Shown: piece by piece, positions 25,169 through 59,275 of the stretch
Layout: each line of letters opens with the position of its first letter
Numbering within the stretch: the first letter of the stretch is position 1
Source of the DNA: Clostridia bacterium
Lineage (GTDB): Bacteria > Bacillota > Clostridia > RGIG6154
Reading direction: 5' to 3'
DNA length: 64,000 nucleotides
Assembly: GCA_017626145.1 (NCBI GenBank)
Contig: JAGAJK010000044.1
Span: 24,424 to 88,423 of the forward strand
Position numbers and translations under genes: made by a program
The notes under the pieces: generated by a model
The model's database searches: none
What the model was told of the DNA's origin: nothing
The model's input: the letters and a program-made list of their open reading frames with translations, nothing else

Positions 25169-26026
25169 TTAGTGAGACAGCCCCTTTTTATATTCTGTAA
25201 CAGTTTTACCTGTGTGTTTTTTAAATAAACGACAGAAATACTTTTCATCGTCAATGCCGAGTTGTGATGACAATTCTGAAGTATTGATGGTTTTGCTTAA
25301 AAGTATATCAGTAGCTAAATTTATTTTTGTTTTGTTTATATAATTAATGATTGAACAATTGTTAGCTTTTTTGAAGATACGGCAAATGTAACTTTCACTA
25401 AGATTTAAGAAGTTCGCAATATCTTTCAAAGCAATTTTTTTATATATGTTTTCTGAAATATAATTTTTTATTTTTTGGCAATATAAATAATCGGAATGAG
25501 AAATACCCAGTTCTGCCCCGACGTATTTTAGTGAATAATCATTCAGATATGAAAAAAGTTCAAATAAAATTGATGTAACTTTCAGATTGTTTTTTGCGGT
25601 AAAATTATAAATAATATCTTTAATTAAATTTTTACATTCCGCTGATTCTTCAAGAGGTAATGATTCAGATACAATTACAATGTTTTCTTTTTCTGAAAAA
25701 TTTATAATATCACAATCTTCTATAATTTCGATATCAGATAATCCACTTATCCCTACTGTTATATGAGTGTGGGTTGTGTTGCAGGGCATACCATTTAACG
25801 TTTCGTTATATATGTTGCAATTTACTGTTTTTTCTTGGTAAATTCTTTTATCACGATTGGCTTTTTCAAACACAAGAGTTCCTTGTTCTACATAAGTAAA
25901 TTCAGCACAATTACTATTGTGCAATTTGTGGAGCACAATATTGTAATTATTTGTGCTGTATTGGTGTGCAAAAAGAATTTCGGGTATTGAATTTAGTGTA
26001 ATTTTATAAAATTTCATATATATCAC
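25169..26026 (-). CDS. AraC family regulator, divergent from GRE1
   Basis: C-terminal HTH (YICRIFKK, YFCRLFKKHTG). Confidence 0.9.
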   Translation of the reverse strand: MIYMKFYKITLNSIPEILFAHQYSTNNYNIVLHKLHNSNCAEFTYVEQGTLVFEKANRDKRIYQEKTVNCNIYNETLNGMPCNTTHTHITVGISGLSDIEIIEDCDIINFSEKENIVIVSESLPLEESAECKNLIKDIIYNFTAKNNLKVTSILFELFSYLNDYSLKYVGAELGISHSDYLYCQKIKNYISENIYKKIALKDIANFLNLSESYICRIFKKANNCSIINYINKTKINLATDILLSKTINTSELSSQLGIDDEKYFCRLFKKHTGKTVTEYKKGLSH

Positions 26027-26132
26027 CTTTTATATAATATCAAAATAGTCCACTAATGTCAAGCATGTGTGTTTACAAATTCTGAAGTATTATGTATATT
26101 GTTAATACAATCTTAATTAAGGAGGCGCTTTT

Positions 26133-28244
26133 ATGGAAAAACTGGAATTATTAAGAAATGAGCTAACAAATAAATTCAATGGCAAGTATATATCGTTATA
26201 CAATATTAATATGTATGCAGGATTAAAAGAATGTTATAATGATACACCTCTTACGGCTAAAGCAAAAGCAACTGCGAATTTGTTTAGAATTCATAAAAAG
26301 ATAGTTTATGAAAATGATATAATTCTCGGTTCTGTTGGAGGTAAATATGCTAAAGATATTAACGAATATGAACTAAAACAAGCAAGTAACGTCGTTAACA
26401 ATTTTGGTGTAAACACCTTTAACACCAACAAAGACCACTTTGCCCCCGATTATGAATATGTACTTATAAAAGGAGTAGGCGGTATGATTGCCGATATAGA
26501 TTCATCTCTTGAAAAGCATAAGGATGATAGTGATAAGGTTGAATTTCTTACTGCATGTAAAATCACTCTTTCAGGTTTTTCGGATATGATTAAAGATTAT
26601 GCCAATGAAGCAAGACGAATGGGAAAAATGTTGGAAGCTAAGGTGTGTGATAACATTTCTTTTGATGCACCGAAAACGTTTAGGGAAGCCTTACAGCTTG
26701 TATGGTTATGTCATATAAGCTTCAGTTATGAAGATAGAGGTGCTATGGCTCTTGGCAGAATGGACCAATATCTTTACCCTTTTTATAAAAAAGATGTTGA
26801 TAAAAATATTACAAAAGAACAAGTTTGCGAACTTTTGTCCTGTACGCTCTTAAAACTTGTGGAAGGTAAATATTTATCAGAAATAGATACTGTAAACATT
26901 TGTATAGGCGGAACAAAAAAAGATGGAACTGATGCAGTAAATGAGCTTTCTTATCTTATTTTAGAAGCGGTAAAAAATTGCAAGGTATGCGGACCAAATC
27001 TTTCTGCAAGAGTTGGTGAAACCACACCTGATGAGTTTTATGATAAATCTCTTGAAGTTATAGGTACAGGTATTGGTTATCCTGCCCTTATGAACAATGA
27101 AGTAAATATAAAAGCTCTTTCAAGATATGGATACGATTTGGAAGATTGCAATGATTTTTGTATGGTTGGATGTGTAGAAAACTTTTTGCCGGGCAAACAA
27201 CCGGCATGGTCAGATGGTCGTTTCAATTCGCCCAAATATCTTGGATATGCATTAAATAATGGTGTTTGTATGTTAAATGGCATACAAGAGGGTATAATAA
27301 CCGGCGATGTTGATACATTTGATACAATGGATAAATTTCTTGAAGCTTTTAAAAAACAACTTGCTGCAGGGGCAGATAAATATGTTGCGTTCTTTAATAA
27401 TGAGAATGCAAGATATAATTATAGGATGTATTCACAACCATATTTATCTTGTTTTGTACCAAGCTGTATAGAAAGAGGTCTTGATATTAGATGCGGCGGT
27501 ACAAAATACCCATCTGTACACGGTGTATGTGCGATGGGCATAGCAACTGTAGCAGATAGTCTGGCTGCTATTGAAAAAATAGTTTATGACGAAAAAATAT
27601 TAACTCTTTTTGAATTAAGAGATATAATTAAGAATAATTTTGAAGGCAGGGAAGATATACGAAAAAAACTTCTTAATGCGCCTAAATATGGAAATAATTT
27701 AGAGTTTGTGGATAAGTATGCAAAGTGGTTTGTTGAAGTTCACGACGAAATATTTTTCAACAAACGAACACCTGATGGCGGAAGATTTTATATTGGTATA
27801 GCTTCTAATACGGCTAATATAAATATGGGGCTTGAGGTTCCTGCAACCCCTGATGGCAGAAAAAGTCAAACTCCTTTAAGTGATGCGGCTTCCGCTATGA
27901 GAGGAATGGATAAAGACGGGTTAACATCACTTCTGACATCTTTATCAAAACCTGATTATTCAAAATCTGCATTAGGTACTGTTGTTAATGTTAAACTCAG
28001 CAATACAATATTTGAAGACATATCAAAAAGAAATATATTGCGGGAAGTTATAAAAATTTATTTTAAAAACGGAGGTCAGGAAATTCAAACTAATTGTGTA
28101 TCAAGAGAGATGTTGATTGATGCCAAAAAACATCCTGAGAATTATGCTGATTTAGTGGTAAGGGTATCCGGTTTCAGCGCCTTTTATACAACGCTTAGTG
28201 AAATGGTGCAAGATGATATACTTGAGAGGCTGGAACATAAATGA
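26133..28244 (+). CDS. Glycyl radical enzyme 1 (PFL-like superfamily, substrate unknown)
   Basis: Cys loop VGCVE, Gly loop LVVRVSGF, LGRMDQYLYP and ATPDGR motifs. Confidence 0.92.
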   Translation: MEKLELLRNELTNKFNGKYISLYNINMYAGLKECYNDTPLTAKAKATANLFRIHKKIVYENDIILGSVGGKYAKDINEYELKQASNVVNNFGVNTFNTNKDHFAPDYEYVLIKGVGGMIADIDSSLEKHKDDSDKVEFLTACKITLSGFSDMIKDYANEARRMGKMLEAKVCDNISFDAPKTFREALQLVWLCHISFSYEDRGAMALGRMDQYLYPFYKKDVDKNITKEQVCELLSCTLLKLVEGKYLSEIDTVNICIGGTKKDGTDAVNELSYLILEAVKNCKVCGPNLSARVGETTPDEFYDKSLEVIGTGIGYPALMNNEVNIKALSRYGYDLEDCNDFCMVGCVENFLPGKQPAWSDGRFNSPKYLGYALNNGVCMLNGIQEGIITGDVDTFDTMDKFLEAFKKQLAAGADKYVAFFNNENARYNYRMYSQPYLSCFVPSCIERGLDIRCGGTKYPSVHGVCAMGIATVADSLAAIEKIVYDEKILTLFELRDIIKNNFEGREDIRKKLLNAPKYGNNLEFVDKYAKWFVEVHDEIFFNKRTPDGGRFYIGIASNTANINMGLEVPATPDGRKSQTPLSDAASAMRGMDKDGLTSLLTSLSKPDYSKSALGTVVNVKLSNTIFEDISKRNILREVIKIYFKNGGQEIQTNCVSREMLIDAKKHPENYADLVVRVSGFSAFYTTLSEMVQDDILERLEHK

Positions 28245-28313
28245 CACTAATTTAATATTCACCCTTTCTCTGATTGTGAATTGGAAAATACAGCACTACA
28301 GATGAAAATGTGA
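28241..28313 (+). pseudogene. Possible eroded stub of a GRE-activating enzyme
   Basis: ATGA-coupled start gives MTLI*; the shifted frame reads FNIHPFS, like the activase N-terminal IFNIQRFS motif. Confidence 0.3.
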
Positions 28314-28361
28314 ATATAAAAAGTTAAATAACTAATTTGTAATATAAGGAGAAGAAGTGCT

Positions 28362-29468
28362 ATGATTAAAAAATTAAAAGCAGCGATATTTACAGGTGCA
28401 AACAAACCTTTTGAAATTAAAGAGTTTGACATAACACCCCCCAAAAAAGGTATGGCAAGATTAGATCTTGAAGCAAGTGGCGTGTGCGGTACAGACGTAC
28501 ATTTTCACACAGGTAAACTTTTGTTGGAGCCACCAAAAGTTATAGGTCACGAATATGTTGGCCGCGTGGTCGATATATCAGAAGAAGATAGCAAAAAATT
28601 TGGAATAAATGCAGGAGATGTTGCGATAGTTGATATAGCGTGTCCTTGCGGAGAATGTAAACTTTGTAAAAGCGGTGACGATGCGAATTGTGTTAATATG
28701 GCGGTAACAAATGGAGGTAATCCTTATGAAGTTCCGTATTTTCATGGCGGTTTTGCTGAAACTACTTATGCACCAATTGAAAATCTTATAAAACTACCTG
28801 AAAATGTTGACCCGTTGGCAGCGTGTGTTTTTGCTTGTCCCGGGCCTACAGCTATTCATGCATTTAATCTTGCTAAAAAAGCAGGTGTTGATTTGTCTGA
28901 TGTTTCATTGGCGGTTGTTCAGGGAACAGGTCCTGTAGGCTGTATGGCGATAGCTTATTTAAAAGCATTGAATGTTAAAAAAATATTTGCACTTGTTGCG
29001 GATATAACTAACGATAATTTAAATCTTGTTAAAAAACTTGGAGCGGATGATATAATTGATGTTAAAAATAAGTCTGATGCTGAAATAGGAGAATTAATTA
29101 AAAATGCATCTGATGGTCTTGGTGCTGATCTCGTTTTTGAAGCATCAGGAAATCCCAAAGCAATTCCCACCGGGTTTGAAATTCTTAGAAACAGAGGCGT
29201 TTATCTTGTTCCGGGACAATATTCGAACAGTGGCGAAATTAGTATAATGCCGCAACTGATAACATTTAAAGCACTTCATATTATCGGGTCATCCCAGTAC
29301 AATATATGTGACGTTAAAGAATATGTTGATTTTATATCAAAGGATTTTAAACTTCAGGAAATAATAAAAAGCCTTGCAAGTTGTTATACAGTGAGCGATA
29401 TAAATGTTGCTTTTGATGACGCAAAAGCACGAAAAAATATAAAAACTGTTCTTGTGAAGGAGGGGTAA
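28362..29468 (+). CDS. Zinc-dependent alcohol/polyol dehydrogenase (MDR)
   Basis: GVCGTD, GHE, CGECKLCKSGDDANC and GTGPVG motifs. Confidence 0.92.
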   Translation: MIKKLKAAIFTGANKPFEIKEFDITPPKKGMARLDLEASGVCGTDVHFHTGKLLLEPPKVIGHEYVGRVVDISEEDSKKFGINAGDVAIVDIACPCGECKLCKSGDDANCVNMAVTNGGNPYEVPYFHGGFAETTYAPIENLIKLPENVDPLAACVFACPGPTAIHAFNLAKKAGVDLSDVSLAVVQGTGPVGCMAIAYLKALNVKKIFALVADITNDNLNLVKKLGADDIIDVKNKSDAEIGELIKNASDGLGADLVFEASGNPKAIPTGFEILRNRGVYLVPGQYSNSGEISIMPQLITFKALHIIGSSQYNICDVKEYVDFISKDFKLQEIIKSLASCYTVSDINVAFDDAKARKNIKTVLVKEG

Positions 29469-29471
29469 AAG

Positions 29472-30590
29472 ATGAGAACAGAAATAGTCAGATATAAAGA
29501 ATACTACATTTTTAAACTTTTTAATGACGATGAAAAAGAAATATCTCATGCTGCTGTGAAAATTCTTACATCAAGGCTTAATGGTGCAGAAGTAAAATCT
29601 ATTACAGTAGGAGGAGTTTTTACTGACCCCGAATATCGTCGTCTTGGTGCAGTACGAATTATATTTAATGAAATTAATAAATTTGCAGAGAAAGAAAAAT
29701 GCCTTGTAACGTTTCTTCATCCCTTTGCTACAGAATATTATAGAAAATTTGGTTATGAACGAATTTCAAATCATTGTGTTTTGGAATTTCCTATGTCTGC
29801 GCTTGAATTTGCTCCAAGATATAATAATCTTAAACCATATAAGGATACAAAATCAGCAGGTGATTTAGTTGAAATATATAACGAATATGCTAAAAACAGA
29901 AATATAATGCTTGAAAGAACGCCTGAAAGTTATCCAATTCCTGAAGATGATAAAAAGATATACATTCTTTATGATGAAAATGATAAACCTACGGCATATA
30001 TTTACTATTCAGAAGAATATAATTTTGTTATCAATCATAACATTGGTGTAAATTTAAATGTTTACGAAATGTGTTTTGCTTCTTTGGAAGACTTAATAAA
30101 ACTTTTTGGTTTTATCAGAATGTTTGATGGGAATATCGGGAGTGTTAAAATACATGATTGTGCAATGTCACCTGAAGTTGAACTCACGTTAAAACATTAT
30201 GAGCATATGTCAATTTCTCATTATCCTGATATAAGCGCAAGAATAAATAATACGCAAAAGGTCCTTTCTGTTGTGACATATCCTGAAGAAAAAGGTAAGT
30301 TTATCGTAAAGGTAACAGAACCTGAAAAAAGCGAACATAGTCCGGAAAACACGGCTGGAATTTTCAAAGTGGAATACCAAAATAAAAAAAGTGTTGTTAC
30401 AAAGCTTGATGATAATTCAAATTTTGATTTTTCAACAGATATTCAGGGGCTTACTAAGCTAATTTATGGTTTTAATACTTATGGCTACGAAATTTCCAAA
30501 TATATGAGAAACACAAAATTCAACAACGAATGTCCTGATTTCTTTAGAGCATTTCCTAATCGTCCATGCGGTGCTTATGAGCATTTTTAA
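29472..30590 (+). CDS. Eis-like GNAT acetyltransferase
   Basis: GGVFTDPEYRRLG and LHPF..YYRKFGYE motifs; Eis-like length. Confidence 0.85.
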   Translation: MRTEIVRYKEYYIFKLFNDDEKEISHAAVKILTSRLNGAEVKSITVGGVFTDPEYRRLGAVRIIFNEINKFAEKEKCLVTFLHPFATEYYRKFGYERISNHCVLEFPMSALEFAPRYNNLKPYKDTKSAGDLVEIYNEYAKNRNIMLERTPESYPIPEDDKKIYILYDENDKPTAYIYYSEEYNFVINHNIGVNLNVYEMCFASLEDLIKLFGFIRMFDGNIGSVKIHDCAMSPEVELTLKHYEHMSISHYPDISARINNTQKVLSVVTYPEEKGKFIVKVTEPEKSEHSPENTAGIFKVEYQNKKSVVTKLDDNSNFDFSTDIQGLTKLIYGFNTYGYEISKYMRNTKFNNECPDFFRAFPNRPCGAYEHF

Positions 30591-30698
30591 TAAAAGTGAT
30601 GCCGCCGAATTAAGAAACGTGGTCGTTTTCAAAAAAATATCGCATAATCAAGTAAAAATCTGCACACGAAAAGTGTGCGGTTTTTTATATATTGGTAA

Positions 30699-30739
30699 TA
30701 AAATCTTAAATTTGAGAAGTAAAATCTTAAAATTGAGAA
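30699..30739. promoter_or_regulatory. Tandem operator-like repeat with a 21-bp period
   Basis: TAAAATCTTAAATTTGAGAA and TAAAATCTTAAAATTGAGAA upstream of a TGnTATAAT. Confidence 0.5.
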
Positions 30740-30804
30740 TTGTTTTGAATGTGCTTCAATGGTATAATTTTTTGAGAATGTATGTTTGAAATGATGAGAA
30801 TGAG

Positions 30805-31074
30805 GTGAAAAAGTTTTTTGCACTATTTCTTATATTTTGTGTGCTTTTAAACTCAGTTGTATTAGCAAGCGCTGATGAACATATATGGTCAAATGCATCT
30901 GAGTGGGCTGTTGATGAACTGAAAAATGCAGAAATAGCAGGTTTAATTCCCGAAAGTTTTAATGACAAAGATTTGACAAATATGTATGGTATTTACTCAA
31001 TTCCGTATCGGTTACAAAAAATCTCCCGAATTTGCCGCTTATGCAAATTCGGAAGATTTAACAGTTTAAAGTGA
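30805..31074 (+). pseudogene. Truncated S-layer-homology (SLH) surface protein
   Basis: Signal peptide followed by ASEWAVDELKNAEIAGLIP, an SLH-type start. The resemblance stops after KDLT and the ORF runs into the GRE2 terminator. Confidence 0.6.
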
Positions 31075-33177
31075 ATGTTCGGTTCGTGCGATTACCTCTT
31101 GTTGCATATTTGGTTCAAGTGAAACAAAATAATCACTGTATCCGCCTATACGAACAACAAGGTCACGGTATTGTTCGGGATTATCAACCGCTTTTAAAAG
31201 AGTGTCTTTATCAACAACATTTATCTGTATTTCAAAACCGCCTCTGGAAAGGTATGTTTTAACCAGATTTTTCATAGTTTCAACAGAGTTCGGCCCTAAA
31301 GATTTCTTGGAAAACTTCATATTTACGGCAACACCGCCTATTAATTCGTGGTGTTCCCATTTTGTTGAAGATATAATTGATGCAGTAGGTCCCTTCATTT
31401 CTCTTCCCTGACAAGGGCCGGAGCCGTCTCCCAAAGGAAAGCCTGCACGTCTGCCATCAGGCGTTGCTCCTGTTTGTCTGCCGAAGCTTTCGTGTCTTAT
31501 CCAGCAGAATACACTTGGTATAAGATTTGCGTTAGAATGAACGCCTTCATGCTTTTTACATTCCGAAACTATATGCTTTATTATTAAATCAAAATACTTA
31601 TCAACATCATCGTTATCGTTGCCGTATTTGGGAATAGTGTTTAAAATGCGTTGCCTTAAAACTTCGTTGTTTTTAAAATCGTCATCAATAATTTCTTTTA
31701 ATTCTTTTATGGTGAATTCCTTTTTATCAAAAACAAGTTCTTTTATGGCATATAAAGAATCCACAAGATTTGCCATGCCCACAAAACTTGGCATTATCCA
31801 GTTATATCTCGCTCCCCCACGCTCAATATCGAGTCCTCTTTCAAGACAATCGTTAACAAAGCAAGAAAGCAACGGATTTAATGAATTGTTACATCTGTCA
31901 TTTCTTTGATTTATTTCAACCTCTAAATTGTTTTTAATTTTTTCATCAAGAACAGAATAAATTTTTTCTATAAGTTCATCAAAAGAATTATATTCTCGGT
32001 CCATAACATCCAAAAGCAGTTGCGCCATATTGGTATAAGGACTTGCAACCCATACATTTGATGATGCTACAGGCGTTATTTCAACACAGTTGCTGTGAAT
32101 ATAACTGCAGGCTTCTTTTTCGGGAACACCGTAGCTTTTAAGACCTTTTATTATAACATCGTCATTAAAAATTGCAGGATGCGAACGTCCGTGTGTTAAA
32201 ATTTCACAAGCCATTTCTATGTATTCATCATCCATACCTTCAGTGTAACAAAAACCAACCGAAGGATACACCAGTCGAATATCGTCAATCACCTGCATAC
32301 ACATCTTTGTTAAATCGTTTTGAACAATTTCGTTATTTTCGTCACGGCCGCCTACCATATAACCATTGGAAACACCTCCGGCAACATTTCTGTTAATCTG
32401 AATTCCCACACAATCTAAAAGAAGGTGTGCAAACTCTTTGGTTATAACTTTATTTTCTATATCGTTTTTATAATACTTATACAAATAACGGTCGGGATGA
32501 CCTAACTGAAACTGCAATATTGAGTATCTATATGGATTATACCCCAAACAATATGTAATAAAGCTTACCGATTGAACTGCTTCATAAAAGCTTTCTGCAG
32601 GATATTTGGGCACTTTTCTGCAAATTTTCGAAATTGTTTCAAGTTCTTTTTTTCTTTCTTCATTCTTTTCGGATTCAGCAAGTCTTTTTGCTTCATCGGC
32701 ATAATTTTCAGAATGAACAATAACTGCGTCTAAACATTTTTTACAGGATTGATAAAAAGGTATTTTGTCATCAGTTGCAGTTTCTATGTATTTATCTATT
32801 TTTTCTATTATTCCTGCAATACCCAAATTTAAAATAATATCATAGTCTATTGACATATGCGAATCCTGACCGCCACCGGCTTTTTGAGCAGTTTTTTTCC
32901 ATACATCAAGATAAGTTTCATTATATTCCTTTTTTTCCTCTTCATTTAAAAACAAACCGTATTTACCCACAACAAGCTCATCATCACTTATATTGGGACG
33001 CATTTTTGCAAAGGCTTCATAAAATGAATTTGCGTATTTTTCCACATTTGATGTGTCACAATCTGTGCCGAAATTTTTAAAGAAGTAGTAAATAAAATCT
33101 TCTCTGTATATAGGATTTTTTAATAAACTACCTTGTTTCTCAAGTGCAATTTTTCGTAATCTTTCAATTCTTTCCAT
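31066..33177 (-). CDS. Glycyl radical enzyme 2 (PFL-like superfamily, substrate unknown)
   Basis: Cys loop HSNCVE, Gly loop LVVRIGGY, PKYGND and GATPDGR motifs. Confidence 0.92.
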   Translation of the reverse strand: MERIERLRKIALEKQGSLLKNPIYREDFIYYFFKNFGTDCDTSNVEKYANSFYEAFAKMRPNISDDELVVGKYGLFLNEEEKKEYNETYLDVWKKTAQKAGGGQDSHMSIDYDIILNLGIAGIIEKIDKYIETATDDKIPFYQSCKKCLDAVIVHSENYADEAKRLAESEKNEERKKELETISKICRKVPKYPAESFYEAVQSVSFITYCLGYNPYRYSILQFQLGHPDRYLYKYYKNDIENKVITKEFAHLLLDCVGIQINRNVAGGVSNGYMVGGRDENNEIVQNDLTKMCMQVIDDIRLVYPSVGFCYTEGMDDEYIEMACEILTHGRSHPAIFNDDVIIKGLKSYGVPEKEACSYIHSNCVEITPVASSNVWVASPYTNMAQLLLDVMDREYNSFDELIEKIYSVLDEKIKNNLEVEINQRNDRCNNSLNPLLSCFVNDCLERGLDIERGGARYNWIMPSFVGMANLVDSLYAIKELVFDKKEFTIKELKEIIDDDFKNNEVLRQRILNTIPKYGNDNDDVDKYFDLIIKHIVSECKKHEGVHSNANLIPSVFCWIRHESFGRQTGATPDGRRAGFPLGDGSGPCQGREMKGPTASIISSTKWEHHELIGGVAVNMKFSKKSLGPNSVETMKNLVKTYLSRGGFEIQINVVDKDTLLKAVDNPEQYRDLVVRIGGYSDYFVSLEPNMQQEVIARTEHSL

Positions 33178-33349
33178 AAAAATACCCCCTTTTTGGTGTT
33201 AATACTATAACATACTATTACTTAAAAATCAATGAAAATTCAAACTTTTTCTGTATTCTGTAGGCGACATTCCCATATATTTTTTAAAAAGCCTGTTTAT
33301 GCCGATAATTTAAAAAACAAGGAGAGAAAAATCGTTGATTTTTCTCTCC

Positions 33350-33550
33350 TTATTTATTAAAAAGGTTATTTAGTCTGTTTTTCAGATTTTCTTTTCTTTT
33401 TAATGTTTCTTCTTCGTTATAAACAATTTCAATTACCGCTCCTTCACCTGCACCTTCAGGAAGAATTTCGGCAGGTAACTCAATCATTTTCCCGTCTTCT
33501 TTTTCGCAAACAGCAACATTTTCTTCTATTCTATCAATAATCAGCTTCAA
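33350..33550 (-). CDS. DUF3006 family protein
   Basis: LIIDRIEENVAVCE...LPEGAGEG. Confidence 0.85.
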   Translation of the reverse strand: MKLIIDRIEENVAVCEKEDGKMIELPAEILPEGAGEGAVIEIVYNEEETLKRKENLKNRLNNLFNK

Positions 33551-33561
33551 AAAAACTCCTC

Positions 33562-34446
33562 CTATACCAAGTTAATAATGCAAAGAGCTATAAATGCCAA
33601 CACCAAACCTACTGCACTTTTAACAGTTATTTTTTCCTTAAAGGCAACCGATGCCATCACAGCCGAAATCAATAGTGCCGCTCCCTGATTTAGGGGATAT
33701 AATTTTGCTGCATCTATAAGTCCTGCCGCTTTCACCTTGAAAAACGAATTTACAAAAAGACCAACTGCCATAATAATTACATAAATTGCTATTCCTTTCG
33801 TTTTTTCAAGGCTCTTTTGTTTTTCTTTTTGCGTAAGGAACATAATTAAAATTACAAGAAAGCTTACTATGTACGAATAAAAATTAAAAACCGAATTTAT
33901 ACCGTCAGGCTTTAAACGCACAAACAATTTCTGCGACAAGTCCGCCATACCGTTACATATACCTGCGGCTACCAAAACAAAATTTCCAAATACAGTAGTC
34001 TTTCCCACAACGCTTTTATTGTATGAGCTCATAATAAAAACAGCTATAACAAGCACGACAAATCCTATCCACTGCAAAAACTTCACCTGTTCGTCAAAAA
34101 GAACACTGCAAACTACAAGAGGTATTATTGTACCAAGTGTAAGAGAAACCTCTATCATAGTATAAGCACCGCTTCGAACGGCAAAAATCCAGGTTATAAC
34201 AAAAAATGCAGAAAATACGCCCGACATTGCCGAAATTAAAAGTGTTTGTGCATCTACTTTAAAAGCATCAATACCGCCGTCGGCAAAAATTGCAAGAGCA
34301 CCGCCTATAATTATACAAAGAAGCATACGAAGCATATTAAGAGCCATTACTTCGCTTACCGAATTAATAAGAGTACTTGTTTTCTTTCCACAATATGCTT
34401 TTGCTGTTCCGCCAATAAGAGCAATAACTAAAAATAAATATCCCAT
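33562..34446 (-). CDS. EamA/DMT family transporter
   Basis: 10 TM helices in two repeats; FKEKIT motif. Confidence 0.8.
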   Translation of the reverse strand: MGYLFLVIALIGGTAKAYCGKKTSTLINSVSEVMALNMLRMLLCIIIGGALAIFADGGIDAFKVDAQTLLISAMSGVFSAFFVITWIFAVRSGAYTMIEVSLTLGTIIPLVVCSVLFDEQVKFLQWIGFVVLVIAVFIMSSYNKSVVGKTTVFGNFVLVAAGICNGMADLSQKLFVRLKPDGINSVFNFYSYIVSFLVILIMFLTQKEKQKSLEKTKGIAIYVIIMAVGLFVNSFFKVKAAGLIDAAKLYPLNQGAALLISAVMASVAFKEKITVKSAVGLVLAFIALCIINLV

Positions 34447-35171: not shown

Positions 35172-36362
35172 TTAGTTTGTATAGTTATCAAAGTAACCCT
35201 GAACAAGAACTATTGGTGTTCCCTTATCGCCCGAGCCACTTGTAAGGTCACAAAGCGAACCGATTAAGTCAGTAATTCTTCTTGGAGTTGTTCCCTGAGA
35301 CGCCATACTACCGGCAAGGTCAGCATCCTTTTTACGGATTTTTTCTTCAATTGCTTTCTTTAAAGCTTCGCCCGAAAGGTCTGCAAAATCGTTATCTGCG
35401 AGGTACTTTAGCTTAAGCTCATTAGGGGTACCTTCAAGACCGGATGTATTCGCAACAGAAACGCTTGGATCTGCAAGCTCCCAGATTTTTCCAACGGGGT
35501 CTTTGAATGCACCGTCGCCGTATACCATAGCTTCTATATGCTTACCTGTTTTTTCAAGCATCCTGGATTGAATTTCGAGTACAAGATCCATACATTCATT
35601 AGGGAATAATTTAATAGTATCTTCAGTTGATTTATTTGAACCTAAAAGACCGAACTTTGAATTATAACCACTGCCGTCAACAGACTCTGTTAAAATATCA
35701 TCAAGACCTAAAACAACTTCAGCGCCTGCTTCCTTTAAAATTCTCTTTGTTCTCATTCTTGTATGAATATCACAGGTTAAAACATTTTTAGTATAATCAA
35801 GAATTACTCTTGGGTTGTTTGCAAAAATAATCTCCGCTTCCGCTCCGCATTCACGGATTAAATCGCCGTAATACTCAACATAGTCAACACATGTAAACGG
35901 ATGCTTGTTTACTCCGAATAATTCTCTGTATTTCTTTTCATCCAAAACATCGGAATAAGGATTAACGCCTGCTGCATCAAGCTTGTCCAATGATACAAGC
36001 TCATTACCCACTTCATCGGAAGGATAGCTAAGCATTAAAACAATTTTCTTTGCAGCCTTCGCAATACCTCTTAAGCAGATTGCAAAACGGTTACGTGAAA
36101 GAATAGGAAAAATAACGCCTATGGTTTCGCTTCCGAGCTTTGCCTGAACGTCCTTTGAAATTGCATCAATTGACGCATAATTACCCTGTGCACGTGCAAC
36201 TACCGATTCGGTAACGCAAATTACATCACGGTCATTAAACGAAAAATTATCAGTTTCCGATGCTTCAAGAACGCTTGTTACTACAATCTCCGCAAGATTA
36301 TCACCTTCACGGATGATTGGGCAACGGATGCCTCTTGATGTTGTTCCTACATTTCTTGCCAT
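35172..36362 (-). CDS. F420-0:gamma-glutamyl ligase (CofE)-like protein
   Basis: PIIREGD, TESVVARAQG, GTTPRR and GSGDKGTP motifs. Confidence 0.82.
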   Translation of the reverse strand: MARNVGTTSRGIRCPIIREGDNLAEIVVTSVLEASETDNFSFNDRDVICVTESVVARAQGNYASIDAISKDVQAKLGSETIGVIFPILSRNRFAICLRGIAKAAKKIVLMLSYPSDEVGNELVSLDKLDAAGVNPYSDVLDEKKYRELFGVNKHPFTCVDYVEYYGDLIRECGAEAEIIFANNPRVILDYTKNVLTCDIHTRMRTKRILKEAGAEVVLGLDDILTESVDGSGYNSKFGLLGSNKSTEDTIKLFPNECMDLVLEIQSRMLEKTGKHIEAMVYGDGAFKDPVGKIWELADPSVSVANTSGLEGTPNELKLKYLADNDFADLSGEALKKAIEEKIRKKDADLAGSMASQGTTPRRITDLIGSLCDLTSGSGDKGTPIVLVQGYFDNYTN

Positions 36363-40112: not shown

Positions 40113-40631
40113 TCATTTGTTCCACAAAACTACTGTATTTTGTTTTAAGGTTTTGGGCATATCTATAAGTCTTTGGTTTTCACTGCCACGGAATTGCAAC
40201 GATATATTTCTTTTTTCCTCTTCATATCTGCCGTCAACAAGGACATCAATAAGTGACAGAATTTCTTCCGTTTCTTTGCAATTTCCACGGCTTTCACCTC
40301 TTAATTCCTCTAACGTAAAACCCGAGAACATCCATATGGTTTTATCAGGATATGTTTCTCTTACACGTTTTAAAAAAGGCAACAATGCTTTCTGATTCTC
40401 AGGTTCAAAGGGTTCACCGCCGAGAACGGTAAGGCCGTGAATATATTCAGGTGCCAAGCTTTCTATTATATCATTTTCAACCGTTTCGTCAAAAACATTG
40501 CCGTAGTCGAAGTCCCACGTAGCCTGATTAAAACAATTTTTGCAATAATTACGGCACCCCGAAACGAACAAAGACACCCTCGTTCCGATACCGTTTGCTA
40601 TATCATACTTTTTTATTTCACCGTAATACAT
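40113..40631 (-). CDS. nrdG: Anaerobic ribonucleotide reductase activating protein
   Basis: DIANGIGTRVSLFVSGCRNYCKNCFN and FRGSENQR motifs; follows nrdD. Confidence 0.95.
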   Translation of the reverse strand: MYYGEIKKYDIANGIGTRVSLFVSGCRNYCKNCFNQATWDFDYGNVFDETVENDIIESLAPEYIHGLTVLGGEPFEPENQKALLPFLKRVRETYPDKTIWMFSGFTLEELRGESRGNCKETEEILSLIDVLVDGRYEEEKRNISLQFRGSENQRLIDMPKTLKQNTVVLWNK

Positions 40632-40646
40632 ATTTTTCTCCATTTG

Positions 40647-40815
40647 TAAGAAGCAAATTGAATTAAACCAAGGATTGCACTAAAATGTTGCAGAATGGAC
40701 GAACCGAATCCCGAAGGCGTATATAGATACGCCGAGTTAGGTGAGGTTCGTACATAACACGCAACAAAACAAAGTTTTGTTGCGTGTGGTCTGGTCATTT
40801 TATGCAATTCTTCTT
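40647..40815. repeat. Structured MITE-like insertion between nrdD and nrdG
   Basis: Terminal inverted repeats AAGAAG..AATTG/CAATT..CTTCTT and TTGCAcTAAAATG/CATTTTATGCAA; hairpins GGCGTAT/ATACGCC and CACGCAACAAAAC/GTTTTGTTGCGTG. Confidence 0.6.
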
Positions 40816-40816
40816 T

Positions 40817-42997
40817 TTATAAGTGTAAAACGCGTTCCTGTATTTCCTGAGTTCTACCCTGATTCCAGTACTGAGTTCCGATATAACCGCAGGTTCTTCT
40901 TGCAACATTCATCTTGGTCTGGTCTGTGTTACCGCAGGAAGGACATTTCCAGATTAATTTTCCGCTTTCGTCCTTTTCGATAACAATTTCTCCATCAAAG
41001 CCGCATTCCTGACAGTAGTCGGATTTGGTGTTAAGCTCTGCGTACATAATGTTATCGTATATAAACTTCATAACATCAAGTACAGCTTCGATATTATTCT
41101 GCATATTAGGTACTTCTACATAGCTTATTGCACCGCCCGGTGAAAGTGCCTGGAACTGAGCTTCAAATGCAAGCTTTGTAAATGCATCAATTTCTTCGGT
41201 TACGTGAACGTGATAGCTGTTTGTTATATAATTCTTATCTGTAATACCTTCGATAATACCGAATCTCTTCTGCAGACATTTTGAGAATTTATATGTTGTT
41301 GACTCAAGAGGTGTACCGTAAAGACTGAAATCAATATTTTCTTTTTCCTTCCAGCTCTTGGTTGCTTTGTTAAGATAATGCATAACCTCTAACGCAAACG
41401 GTGTTGCAGACGGGTCGGTATGTGATTTACCTGTCATATACTTAACGCACTCGTAAAGACCTGCATAGCCAAGTGAAATTGTTGAATATCCGCCGAAGAG
41501 AAGCTTATCGATAGTTTCACCCTTTTCAAGACGTGCAAGTGCACCGTACTGCCACAAAATAGGTGCGGCATCAGAAAGTGTTCCTTTAAGTCTGTTATGA
41601 CGGCACATCAATGCTCTGTAGCAAAGGTCAAGTCTTTCGTCAAATATTTTCCAGAAATTCTGCATATCTCCGCCTGAAGAAAGAGCAATATCAACTAAGT
41701 TAATTGTTACAACGCCCTGGTTGAATCTGCCGTAATATTTCGGCTTGTTTGTTTCAGGGTCAACATAAGGTGTTAAGAATGAACGGCAACCCATACAGGT
41801 ATAGCAATGACCTTCGCCGTTTTTATCAACCTTTAACTTAAGCATCATTTTTTCCGAAATATAATCGGGAACCATTCTTTTTGCGGTACATTTTGCCGCA
41901 AGCTCTGTCAGGTAATAATATTTTGAATCCTTATGAATATTATCCTCTTCAAGAACATAAATAAGCTTTGGGAATGCAGGAGTGATTCTTACGCCTGCTT
42001 CATTTTTAACGCCCTGAATTCTCTGATTGAGCATTTCTTCGATTATCATTGATAAATCGTGACGGAGCTGATCGTTTTCAGCTTCACCCAAATACATATA
42101 AACAGTAACGAAAGGTGCCTGACCGTTGGTTGTCATTAATGTTACAACCTGATACTGAATCATCTGACAGCCTTTTTCAATCTCGCTGCGAAGTCTTTTC
42201 TCAACGATTTCGTTTATAACATCCTCTGAAGGATTGCTTCCCATAAGCTTGATTTCTTCAAGCACGCTTGTACGGATTTTTTTACGGCTTACATCAACAA
42301 ACGGTGCTAAATGCGTAAGTGAAATACTCTGACCGCCGTACTGACTTGATGCAACCTGAGCTATAATCTGAGTTGCAATGTTGCAGGCTGTTGAAAAGCT
42401 GTGAGGTGTTTCAATCATTGTGCCCGAAATAACTGTTCCGTTCTGAAGCATATCCTCTAAATTTACAAGGTCGCAGTTATGCATATGCTGTGCAAAATAG
42501 TCGGCATCGTGAAAATGGATAATACCGCTTTCGTGAGCTTCCACTATATCTTGTGGCAGAAGCACACGCTTCGTTATATCCTTACTTACCTCACCTGCCA
42601 TATAGTCACGCTGAACGCTGTTAACAGTTGGGTTCTTATTGGAATTTTCCTGCTTTACCTCTTCATTGTTACACTCTATTAATGAAAGAATCTGCTCGTC
42701 TGTTGTGTTTGACTTACGAACCAATGCTCTGTTATATCTGTATGTAATATACTTTCTTGCAACATTATATGCGTTTCTCTTCATTATTTCATTTTCTACA
42801 AGGTCCTGAATTTCTTCAACACCAAGTGCACGGTGCATATATCCGCACTTTTCTTCTATTATTGCTGCAATTTCACGTATATCATCAGCTGACAATCTTT
42901 CATTCTCGGCAACACTGTTGTTTGCCTTGGTAATAGCCAGTATAATTTTGCTTATGTCAAAAACTGCTTCTGAACCGCTTCTTTTTATAATTTTCAT
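40817..42997 (-). CDS. nrdD: Anaerobic ribonucleoside-triphosphate reductase
   Basis: N-terminal ATP cone, HNC, MGCRS, YITNS, two CxxC motifs and the RRTCGY glycyl loop. Confidence 0.97.
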   Translation of the reverse strand: MKIIKRSGSEAVFDISKIILAITKANNSVAENERLSADDIREIAAIIEEKCGYMHRALGVEEIQDLVENEIMKRNAYNVARKYITYRYNRALVRKSNTTDEQILSLIECNNEEVKQENSNKNPTVNSVQRDYMAGEVSKDITKRVLLPQDIVEAHESGIIHFHDADYFAQHMHNCDLVNLEDMLQNGTVISGTMIETPHSFSTACNIATQIIAQVASSQYGGQSISLTHLAPFVDVSRKKIRTSVLEEIKLMGSNPSEDVINEIVEKRLRSEIEKGCQMIQYQVVTLMTTNGQAPFVTVYMYLGEAENDQLRHDLSMIIEEMLNQRIQGVKNEAGVRITPAFPKLIYVLEEDNIHKDSKYYYLTELAAKCTAKRMVPDYISEKMMLKLKVDKNGEGHCYTCMGCRSFLTPYVDPETNKPKYYGRFNQGVVTINLVDIALSSGGDMQNFWKIFDERLDLCYRALMCRHNRLKGTLSDAAPILWQYGALARLEKGETIDKLLFGGYSTISLGYAGLYECVKYMTGKSHTDPSATPFALEVMHYLNKATKSWKEKENIDFSLYGTPLESTTYKFSKCLQKRFGIIEGITDKNYITNSYHVHVTEEIDAFTKLAFEAQFQALSPGGAISYVEVPNMQNNIEAVLDVMKFIYDNIMYAELNTKSDYCQECGFDGEIVIEKDESGKLIWKCPSCGNTDQTKMNVARRTCGYIGTQYWNQGRTQEIQERVLHL

Positions 42998-58235: not shown

Positions 58236-58880
58236 GTGCAAATTAAATACAACATTACGCCGCGCACCAATAAAATTAAGTTTATTGTAATTCACGACAC
58301 AGCAAATAAAAGTGACGGTGCAAATGCACGTGCTCACTACAATTATTTCAACAGCGGAAACCGCAATTCCTCAGCAGACTGCTTTATAGACAGCAAGGAA
58401 ATACTTTGGGTAAATGACTTTACAAAATATTACACCTGGCATTGCGGTGACGGTAAGGGTAAAAACGGAATAATCAATAACAATTCCATAGGTATCGAGC
58501 TTTGCATAAACGCTGACGGCGATTATGAAAAAGCCCTGAATAATTTAATTGATGAAACAGCCCGTATTGCAAAAATGCTATCCATCAGCCACGACCACAT
58601 TCTGCGTCACTTTGACGTGTCAGGGAAAAACTGTCCCTCCTCTATGCAGAAAAACAATTGGGAAGTATGGAAATTCTTCAAAAATGAGGTGAAACATAAA
58701 ATGAAAGTTAACACTTTTAAAGATATTGAAAATCATTATGCCAGAAAACACATTGAAAAGCTTTTAAACTACGGAATTGTAAATGGTGACGGAAACGGCA
58801 ATTTCAACCCCGACTTACCTTTAACACGTGCCGATGCGGCAATAATGATTGCAAACGCACTTACAGTTGCAGGAAAATGA
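58236..58880 (+). CDS. N-acetylmuramoyl-L-alanine amidase (Amidase_2) with a C-terminal SLH domain
   Basis: IVIHDT, WHCG, NSIGIE and RHFDVSGKNCP motifs; SLH-type FKDI..HYA...GIVNG...FNPD..LTRA. Confidence 0.9.
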   Translation: MQIKYNITPRTNKIKFIVIHDTANKSDGANARAHYNYFNSGNRNSSADCFIDSKEILWVNDFTKYYTWHCGDGKGKNGIINNNSIGIELCINADGDYEKALNNLIDETARIAKMLSISHDHILRHFDVSGKNCPSSMQKNNWEVWKFFKNEVKHKMKVNTFKDIENHYARKHIEKLLNYGIVNGDGNGNFNPDLPLTRADAAIMIANALTVAGK

Positions 58881-59275
58881 TTAATAATTTTTCAAATTGG
58901 ATAAAGCTGTTTTTCGGAACATTAATCACTTTAAGCTCACAAATATTCGGCGGCTTTGACCTGATGTTCAAAGCCCTTATATTCTGTATGGTAGCAGATT
59001 ACATAACAGGAATTCTTTGTGCTCTTTACCAGAAAAAGCTGAATTCCAAAACAGGCTTTAAGGGAATAATAAAGAAAACAGTTATTTTAATTATTGTTTC
59101 TCTTGCTGTTGTAGCAGGAAAAGCTGCAAATTTCAGTGGTCTGCGTGATATGGTAATAGGCTTTTACATTGCAAACGAAAGTCTTTCCATACTGGAAAAT
59201 GCCGCAAAAATGAATATTCCCGTTGTAAAGAAGCTTGAAACAGTTCTGGAGCAGTTAAAAAATAGTGATAACTAA
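58877..59275 (+). CDS. Phage holin family 4 (TcdE/UtxB-like)
   Basis: FGGFD, DYITG, LNSKTGFKGIIKK and NESLSILEN motifs. Confidence 0.92.
   Translation: MINNFSNWIKLFFGTLITLSSQIFGGFDLMFKALIFCMVADYITGILCALYQKKLNSKTGFKGIIKKTVILIIVSLAVVAGKAANFSGLRDMVIGFYIANESLSILENAAKMNIPVVKKLETVLEQLKNSDN

Follow-up and report, generated by a model that had tools for sequence, protein, structure and literature searches.

We examined positions 25169-33177 of a 64,000-nt stretch of DNA (the window) from Clostridia bacterium GCA_017626145.1, contig JAGAJK010000044.1, where two genes for glycyl radical enzymes (GREs), here called GRE1 and GRE2, face each other (Table 1). A preliminary description of the sequence had claimed two convergent 703-aa GREs, the first followed by a Zn-dehydrogenase and an Eis-like acetyltransferase of the GNAT type behind a divergent AraC gene. 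Both GRE genes are indeed intact, and the open reading frames (ORFs) and Pfam matches agree with this gene order. The catalytic motifs of both enzymes are kept, and the genes for their activating enzymes (activases) are unlinked or missing.

Absence of an activase at the locus

The preliminary description also held that no intact activase lies nearby and that nrdG is the only radical S-adenosylmethionine gene in the window, and scans with PF04055, TIGR02494 and tblastn agree with this. PF04055 has 23 matches in the genome, none of them on the window's contig, and all eight TIGR02494-type genes are located on other contigs as well. Among the window ORFs scanned, the only activase-type gene is nrdG (40113-40643, PF13353), which stands beside nrdD (40113-42997 together). 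When 17 activase proteins were compared by tblastn with positions 28200-28400, 30500-31150 and 33150-33600, no activase remnant emerged above noise (best E 0.04).

The GRE1 operon (GRE1, dehydrogenase, GNAT) is intact and carries ribosome-binding and promoter-like sites, the latter in both directions within the 106-bp gap between the AraC gene and GRE1. Near-identical short contigs from four independent DNA runs (X5-X8) cover GRE1, the dehydrogenase and the GNAT gene. The junction between GRE1 and the dehydrogenase, without activase, is bridged in two of these runs (X5 record 4, 27189-28506; X7 record 19, 28150-28859), which argues against mis-assembly at this point. Cover of GRE2 was little or none in X5-X7 and diverged in X8, and we draw nothing from these gaps. 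Among the runs listed as containing the 7-kb stretch, none was an RNA run.

Table 1. Features of the region containing GRE1 and GRE2 (window coordinates).
Feature	Position	Strand	Basis or remark
AraC-family regulator, divergent from GRE1	25169-26026	-	PF00165 and PF12833
GRE1, 703 aa	26133-28244	+	PF02901 (E 1e-131); PF01228 (E 2e-24)
GRE1-dehydrogenase spacer, 117 bp	28245-28361		Position of the activase in 43/72 assessable related loci
Zn-dependent medium-chain dehydrogenase	28362-29468	+	PF08240 and PF00107
Eis-type GNAT acetyltransferase, two-domain	29472-30590	+	PF13527 and PF17668 (Eis-type architecture)
Terminator-like hairpin after the GNAT gene, readable on both strands	30660-30680		
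GRE2, 703 aa	31066-33177	-	PF02901 (E 1e-109); PF01228 (E 7e-25)
Sigma-70-like promoter site before GRE2, TTGATT-17-TATAGT, TG-extended	33204-33232	-	Pattern match only
26-codon open stretch upstream of GRE2, ending in LFKKYMGMSPTEYRKSLNFH and a stop	33229-33306	-	Translation
Strong terminator-like hairpin, 19-bp stem, between GRE2 and the upstream DUF3006 and EamA genes	33315-33355	-	

Linkage of GRE and activase genes among relatives

Family scans were run with alignments as queries (GRE1 alone as query returned 1 locus) and, at one genome per species, yielded 374 relatives of GRE1 and 286 of GRE2. The GRE1 relatives, hundreds of proteins of 700-725 aa, share 52-59% identity, and their source labels are only hypothetical or PFL-family. 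The GRE2 family is tighter (about 696 aa, 61-67% identity). We examined 80 loci per family and 4 further GRE1 loci (84 GRE1 loci, 164 in total).

Linkage was counted only where at least 1.1 kb of sequence lies downstream of the GRE. Among the 72 assessable loci of the GRE1 family, the activase was immediately downstream of the GRE in 43, elsewhere in the locus in 3 and not in the locus in 26. The corresponding counts for the 61 assessable GRE2-family loci were 32, 0 and 29. Mapped on FastTree trees of the enzymes (68 GRE1 rows, 59 GRE2 rows), the state switched between linked and unlinked 11 times for GRE1 and 12 times for GRE2; on each tree, well-supported branches force six or more of these changes. 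These repeated changes indicate that the activase-less state is secondary and recurrent in both families; it is neither a defining trait nor peculiar to this genome. Since L054, the sister of the window's GRE1 (support 99), bears an activase, the loss of the activase is GRE1's own event.

Activase inventory and candidate partners

The genome of this organism (G000; 2.78 Mb, 98 contigs, 95% complete) holds 11 PF02901 GREs and eight TIGR02494 genes (E <=1e-35), seven of the latter above the 174.35-bit cut-off. The count of GREs versus activases that the preliminary description proposed thus came to 11 versus 8. Seven GREs have an adjacent activase, four are orphans (GRE1, GRE2 and a divergent pair on contig C43), and one activase, elsewhere in the genome, is unpaired. 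Only two of the 11 GREs pass any NCBIfam cut-off, namely pyruvate formate-lyase (PFL) and an 844-aa dehydratase-type enzyme on contig C70; the other nine are of unassigned class.

The orphan activase (G000:C50:134360-135289, 309 aa) has no GRE nearby and follows, on the same strand, a gene for a 1167-aa pyruvate:ferredoxin oxidoreductase (PFOR) and a patatin-like gene. It has the features of a GRE-activating enzyme: a TIGR02494 score of 356 bits, a CxxxCxxC motif (CPLNCIWC) in the N-terminus and a ferredoxin-like cluster region, with matches to PF04055, PF13353 and Fer4 families. Of 39 activase ORFs in GRE2-family loci, 38 have it as their best match among the genome's eight activases, at 46-61% identity. 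In a quick IQ-TREE tree of 87 activases, it makes up a 31-row clade together with 30 GRE2-linked activases (support 88), itself part of a 38-row clade (support 95) that also holds a second activase of the genome, C50:78988. This grouping suggests that the orphan activase is a likely partner of GRE2 in trans.

The gene order around the orphan activase is conserved in a congener (G001), where WYL-PFOR-patatin-activase is kept (PFOR 97% and activase 80% identical) and a GRE2-like gene (63% identical) is located on another contig, on which no activase was found. The GRE2 relative in genome G053 is also unlinked, and those in G066, G258 and G279 have the adjacent form.

For GRE1 the picture is different from that of GRE2. 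All 43 activases linked to GRE1 relatives make up a single clade (support 99), and none of the genome's eight activases is inside it. The assembled 95% of the genome therefore appears to have no activase of the cognate lineage, and GRE1 would need cross-activation. A candidate is the activase at C50:87395-88225, which adjoins a GRE with the glycine loop RVSGFSD; the first six residues of this loop are those of RVSGFSA in GRE1. Because the glycine-loop sequence is described as governing activase specificity (2026 review PMC13450708), we take this activase as the best guess for a cross-activator. The proposition that GRE1 is active through cross-activation seems to us evenly balanced.

The activases found beside relatives of the C43 pair also best match C50:87395, at 61-88% identity, although the highest values are partial matches at locus ends; one distant relative of the pair, L206, has the orphan activase as best match instead. 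The preliminary description had one shared activase acting in trans on several GREs. Its proposal of activation in trans fits with the lack of a linked activase and the unpaired activase elsewhere, while the single shared enzyme is too simple a picture: the orphan activase groups with activases of the GRE2 family, the C43 pair points to the already paired C50:87395, and an activase of the GRE1 clade was not found among the eight.

Several other GREs of this genome have unusual features. The C43 pair (G000:C43:1118-7393, locus L183) is divergent, with enzymes of 749 and 750 aa that are 63% identical; each GRE gene has an AraC gene of its own, there is no activase, and conservation of the pair in the congener reaches 98%. 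Their Cys loops are GCWD and GCWA, so that the Cys-x-Glu motif is absent. Three tandem GRE-activase pairs are located within 11 kb at G000:C50:76931-88225 (locus L186); the three GREs (680, 762 and 710 aa) come nowhere near any NCBIfam cut-off, and the Cys loop of one of them, SACCTF, is unusual. The PFL gene (G000:C50:189975-193103; locus L188:3976-7104) reaches 1105 bits with TIGR01255, but its match is confined to positions 1-664 of the 744-position profile. Another frame just downstream, ahead of the PFL activase, encodes the glycine-radical domain (RVSGYAVNF). Either the gene is frameshifted or misassembled, or PFL is naturally split here and its radical domain is a small protein of its own.

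Motifs, predicted folds and class of GRE1 and GRE2

GRE1 and GRE2 share 28% identity over 620 residues, which points to distant paralogs rather than a recent duplication. The motifs given for them in the preliminary description are all read in the translations. GRE1 contains MVGCVENF (Cys loop GCVE, with C347 and E349) and VVRVSGFSAFY (Gly loop RVSGF, with G680), and GRE2 contains HSNCVEIT (Cys loop NCVE, with C364 and E366) and VVRIGGYSDYF (Gly loop RIGGY, with G679). The Cys-Cys pair of PFL is absent from both translations, as had been stated; each has a single Cys at this position, and the PFL model TIGR01255 gives 116 bits for GRE1 and 112 bits for GRE2 versus a cut-off of 994.

In 30-sequence alignments, H102, C347, E349, D361 and G680 of GRE1 and H107, C364, E366 and G679 of GRE2 are family-invariant. 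His164 of glycerol dehydratase aligns with H102 and H107, respectively. Asp447 of the dehydratase is kept as D361 in GRE1 and replaced by an invariant Ala378 in GRE2, and Ser282 corresponds to an invariant Ala204 in GRE1 and to Gln in GRE2. We take Asp447 and Ser282 to be diol-binding positions in glycerol dehydratase.

The only NCBIfam model matched by either enzyme is TIGR01774, a broad subfamily that includes glycerol and propanediol dehydratases, with 438.8 bits for GRE1 and 433.5 bits for GRE2, below the 678.2-bit cut-off. None of the equivalog models for CutC, HypD, HpsG, HpfG, HPAD and IAD (cut-offs 1000-1150 bits) is reached, all scores being far below; the best is 382 bits, for CutC versus 1050, and HypD, as a further example, gives 376 bits versus 1100. 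The closest solved relative of both enzymes is glycerol dehydratase 1r8w (E 5e-103 for GRE1 and 6e-96 for GRE2).

Modeling, which had also been proposed, gave GRE-shaped folds nearest to the same structure. AlphaFold (AF2) models, each built on a 30-sequence alignment, had pLDDT 89.6 and pTM 0.90 for GRE1 (best match 1r8w, TMq 0.91, 28% identity) and pLDDT 82.6 and pTM 0.87 for GRE2 (1r8w, TMq 0.86, 26% identity). Essentially all of the solved PFL-like GREs listed align with them in structure (TMq 0.77-0.92, 19-29% identity); the top ranks go to eliminases, without any one class being distinct. In the alignment, residue 80 of GRE1 corresponds to residue 142 of the dehydratase, i.e., about 62 residues are absent ahead of the barrel. 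The compactness of GRE1 and GRE2 appears to result mainly from the loss of these roughly 60 residues.

The domains, loops and predicted folds thus place both proteins in the PFL-like GRE superfamily. With no cut-off of a characterized class reached and 22-29% identity to solved GREs among the matches listed, both enzymes fall outside every characterized GRE class, in line with the uncharacterized chemistry that had been claimed for them. All eliminases and isomerases listed as characterized in PMC13450708 keep Cys-x-Glu; the eliminases named there are glycerol dehydratase, propanediol dehydratase, HpfG, HypD, HpyG, HpzG, CutC, IslA/IseG and HpsG, and the isomerases HplG, YbiW and PflD. The same source describes Glu435 and His164 as acting in glycerol dehydratase. 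In both families the Glu of Cys-x-Glu is invariant, and so is the residue matching His164, which is proposed to donate a proton to a leaving hydroxyl. It is quite likely, judging from these residues, that GRE1 and GRE2 are eliminases or isomerases acting on a hydroxylated substrate.

Conserved neighborhoods of the two families

Neighbor fractions in this section are floors, since many contigs end close to the GRE gene. According to clustering and Pfam assignments, GRE1-family loci contain a Zn-dehydrogenase (48/81 loci; 45-65% identity), an activase (45/81), a divergent AraC gene (36/81) and, in 12 of 81, an SGNH/GDSL hydrolase of about 330 aa. An Eis-type GNAT matching that of the window by BLAST was present in 7 of 84 loci; its orthologs also carry the SCP2 domain PF13530. 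The core shared by the family comprises an AraC gene, GRE, activase and Zn-dehydrogenase; in its common form the operon consists of a divergent AraC gene followed by GRE, activase, sometimes an SGNH esterase, the Zn-dehydrogenase and sometimes the GNAT. Two cultured carriers, Hydrogeniiclostridium mannosilyticum (L027) and Fumia xinanensis (L062), have this operon complete with an activase. The Zn-dehydrogenase is the conserved partner of GRE1 and the GNAT an occasional accessory. For the dehydrogenase in the window, the nearest NCBIfam models are idonate and threonine dehydrogenases, with scores far below cut-off.

GRE2-family loci have a divergent cupin-AraC regulator of about 284 aa (44/73 loci) and an activase (35/73), and nothing else recurs. 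The family unit is the divergent regulator followed by GRE and activase. The family-type regulator has no clear counterpart in this genome (best tblastn match 29% identical). GRE2 has thus lost both its linked activase and its canonical regulator. In one GRE2-family locus (G066:C5:1183-2076, minus strand), the activase gene next to a GRE that is 67% identical to GRE2 carries one in-frame TAA.

Upstream of GRE2, the promoter-like site described earlier (TTGATT-N17-TATAGT) is present and well placed, 27 nt before the start codon and just after the 19-bp-stem terminator (33355-33315). As a pattern it is no better than chance, with 37 promoter-like sites observed in the region versus 35 +/- 6.3 in shuffled sequences. 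The 26-codon open stretch overlaps the -35 element of this site and, compared by eye, resembles the C-terminal tails of AraC-family proteins. We considered it as a relic of the canonical GRE2 regulator and rejected this, as it has no match to the tails of the canonical regulators; the stretch is probably a rearrangement scar.

The two families rarely occur together. In an even draw of 400 genomes of the class (relatives at E <=1e-150), a GRE1 relative was found in 20, a GRE2 relative in 11, and both only in this genome. Among 15 genomes of the same taxonomic family, none has GRE1, and a GRE2 relative is present in just one of them, the congener. The two families are adjacent in 3 of 164 loci (L073, L120 and L137, the latter two being near-duplicates). 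The order is GRE2-activase-GRE1-GNAT in L073, and in L120 and L137 GRE2-activase is convergent with dehydrogenase-GRE1. Several metagenome-assembled genomes carry both families on separate contigs. We conclude that the two are independent modules that now and then come to lie together.

The earlier idea of a single pathway joining both GREs with redox and acetyl transfer does not agree with co-occurrence in 1 of 400 genomes and a GNAT in 7 of 84 loci. The sugar-derived substrate suggested from nearby glycan genes remains a guess: the glycan genes in the window (GH38, GH127 and a GtaA-like hairpin protein) are not conserved neighbors, and the loci examined show no recurrent transporter, kinase or aldolase near either family, nor any one glycoside hydrolase that recurs.

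Three other ORFs in the window deserve mention. Between the GNAT gene and GRE2 there is an 89-aa ORF (30805-31074, plus strand) that has no Pfam match, starts like a signal peptide and shares a 9-nt overlap with the stop of GRE2; it may encode a small secreted protein or be a fragment of a gene. A 396-aa protein (35172-36362, minus strand) matches PF01996 (F420-0:gamma-glutamyl ligase) over its full length, but its scores with the NCBIfam CofE models are well short of the cut-offs. An SLH-domain N-acetylmuramoyl-L-alanine amidase (58236-59275, plus strand), followed by a phage-type holin, resembles a lysis cassette, with no obvious prophage around it.

Proposed activation and reaction

On balance we favor the reading that the locus encodes two independent, intact Cys-x-Glu GREs, of which GRE2 is activated in trans by the orphan activase and GRE1 is cross-activated. 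The glycyl radical of GRE2 would be installed by the activase at C50:134360-135289 and that of GRE1 by a resident activase, possibly C50:87395-88225. In both enzymes, the thiyl radical would abstract hydrogen from a carbinol carbon, the loop glutamate would deprotonate the substrate hydroxyl and a vicinal group would be expelled, with the His as proton donor where the leaving group is a hydroxyl. In the case of GRE1, the adjacent Zn-dehydrogenase would reduce the carbonyl product, or else make the substrate. GRE1 and the dehydrogenase might then form a compact two-enzyme redox-sink module under AraC control, a pairing that can be likened to glycerol dehydratase with 1,3-propanediol dehydrogenase.

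Several points weigh against this reading. Activase specificity is described as mostly narrow (PMC13450708 section 2.5), and GRE1 would not easily be cross-activated. The activase tree is a quick one, the clade that places the orphan activase has a support of 88, below 95, and C50:78988 belongs to the wider 38-row clade. With 95% completeness and 98 contigs, an activase of the GRE1 type could sit in the missing part of the genome. The models nearest to the dehydrogenase are polyol and threonine dehydrogenases, not aldehyde reductases. Finally, GRE2 has no partner enzyme, and its chemistry is constrained only by the Cys-x-Glu and His residues.

Alternatively, GRE1 could be stranded and inactive, its cognate activase having been lost with no resident substitute. 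None of the eight activases falls in the GRE1-linked clade, and cross-reactivity is described only between near-identical glycine loops (PMC13450708). We nevertheless consider this unlikely, given an intact ORF with every family-invariant residue kept, an intact operon with dehydrogenase, GNAT, ribosome-binding and promoter-like sites, a GRE1-dehydrogenase junction found in other samples, and a resident GRE with the same RVSGFS loop that has its own activase. Furthermore, 26 of 72 assessable relatives also have no activase in the locus and linkage changed at least six times, which indicates that the state persists. The missing activases are even less readily explained as an artefact of assembly or binning of this metagenome-assembled genome. 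Although it is in 98 contigs and 95% complete, one continuous contig spans GRE1 and GRE2, contigs of two independent runs pass from GRE1 into the dehydrogenase with no activase between them, and the activase-less layout occurs in 26 GRE1 and 29 GRE2 loci from other assemblies; such an artefact is extremely improbable.

A different function for GRE1 would be that of a short B12-independent glycerol or 1,2-propanediol dehydratase, with the neighbor as 1,3-propanediol or propanol dehydrogenase. Both by sequence and by fold, GRE1 matches 1r8w and the propanediol dehydratases 9rco and 5i2g best, the GRE1 family is invariant at the positions of His164, Cys433, Glu435 and Asp447, and the GRE-activase-dehydrogenase core mirrors the dhaB1-dhaB2-dhaT arrangement. 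However, identity is just 28%, TIGR01774 scores 439 versus 678, the Ser282 position is the invariant Ala204 and about 62 residues are missing ahead of the barrel. In addition, DhaT is of the Fe type whereas the partner of GRE1 is of the Zn polyol type, and the genome already has a canonical 844-aa GRE with activase (798 bits with TIGR01774). We regard this assignment as quite unlikely. Still more doubtful is a single catabolic pathway in which both GREs act with the dehydrogenase and the GNAT on a sugar-derived compound. The adjacency in L073 and L120/L137, the several metagenome-assembled genomes with both families and the glycoside hydrolases often found near such loci would fit with this. 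On the other hand, both families are present in only 1 of 400 genomes (GRE1 in 20, GRE2 in 11), adjacency is restricted to 3 of 164 loci, of which two are near-duplicates, only 7 of 84 loci have the GNAT, and neither a recurrent glycoside hydrolase family nor a conserved kinase, aldolase or transporter was found, which makes a joint pathway very unlikely.

Implications

As a tentative generalization, which we put forward as a possibility, a few activases may service many unrelated GREs in GRE-rich gut Clostridia, and the two families may carry out eliminations on substrates new for GREs. If so, one broad activase would be a stand-alone gene behind PFOR, which would supply its reductant, and the families would keep shedding linked activases because broad-specificity activation in trans works. 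If cross-activation is common, a gut genome need not have as many activases as GREs, and uncharacterized GREs may be easier to activate heterologously than assumed.

Section 7 of PMC13450708 names two bottlenecks in GRE research, i.e., entire clades to which no function has been assigned and the problem of obtaining an activase that works. The locus bears on both: it defines the common operons of two large compact clades (374 and 286 relatives), and it proposes a testable GRE2-activase pairing that is not readable from gene adjacency. Activase specificity is called poorly studied in the same source, and the repeated unlinking in both families bears on how specific GRE activases are. A literature search at title and abstract level found nothing in print on these compact clades or on orphan GREs. 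The present analysis adds the GRE and activase inventory, the proposed pairing of the orphan activase with GRE2, the absence of a GRE1-clade activase and the frequency of linkage loss; trans-activation itself has precedent.

Comparison with known systems

With the isomerases YbiW/PflD and HplG, both enzymes share Cys-x-Glu, and the lack of a partner enzyme for GRE2 would be compatible with an isomerase that yields a directly usable metabolite (PMC13450708). Identity to these isomerases is 22-24%, and no aldolase or sugar-phosphate genes are found beside GRE2 relatives. The 1,2-propanediol dehydratases (Roseburia inulinivorans 5i2a/5i2g; 9rco-9rcr) give near-equal fold and sequence scores and belong to the Cys-x-Glu eliminase class, but are 816-843 aa long versus 703 aa.

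Glycerol dehydratase of Clostridium butyricum (1r8w/1r9d) resembles both enzymes in Cys-x-Glu and the His164 equivalent, and GRE1 also in the Asp447 equivalent; the GRE1-family core of GRE, activase and dehydrogenase follows the same operon logic. It differs in that identity is 26-28%, Ser282 is replaced by Ala in GRE1 and Asp447 by Ala in GRE2, and GRE1 and GRE2 are shorter by about 85 residues, most of the difference lying before the barrel. The window, moreover, has a Zn-type dehydrogenase, an AraC regulator and no linked activase. The genome's own canonical homolog of the propanediol dehydratases (C70:49553-52087, 844 aa, TIGR01774 798 bits), which has an adjacent activase, is 31-33% identical to GRE1 and GRE2.

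The precedent for activation in trans is E. coli PflA, which activates both PflB and TdcE (PMC13450708 section 2.5). Its targets share close homology and an identical RVSGYAV loop, whereas the orphan GREs of this genome are 24-28% identical to each other, except for the C43 pair (63%). PflA is said to act on GrcA as well. Compared with the single loop of the PflA targets, the loops of the orphan GREs differ among themselves, being RVSGFSA in GRE1, RIGGYSD in GRE2 and R[IV]CGFSA in the C43 pair.

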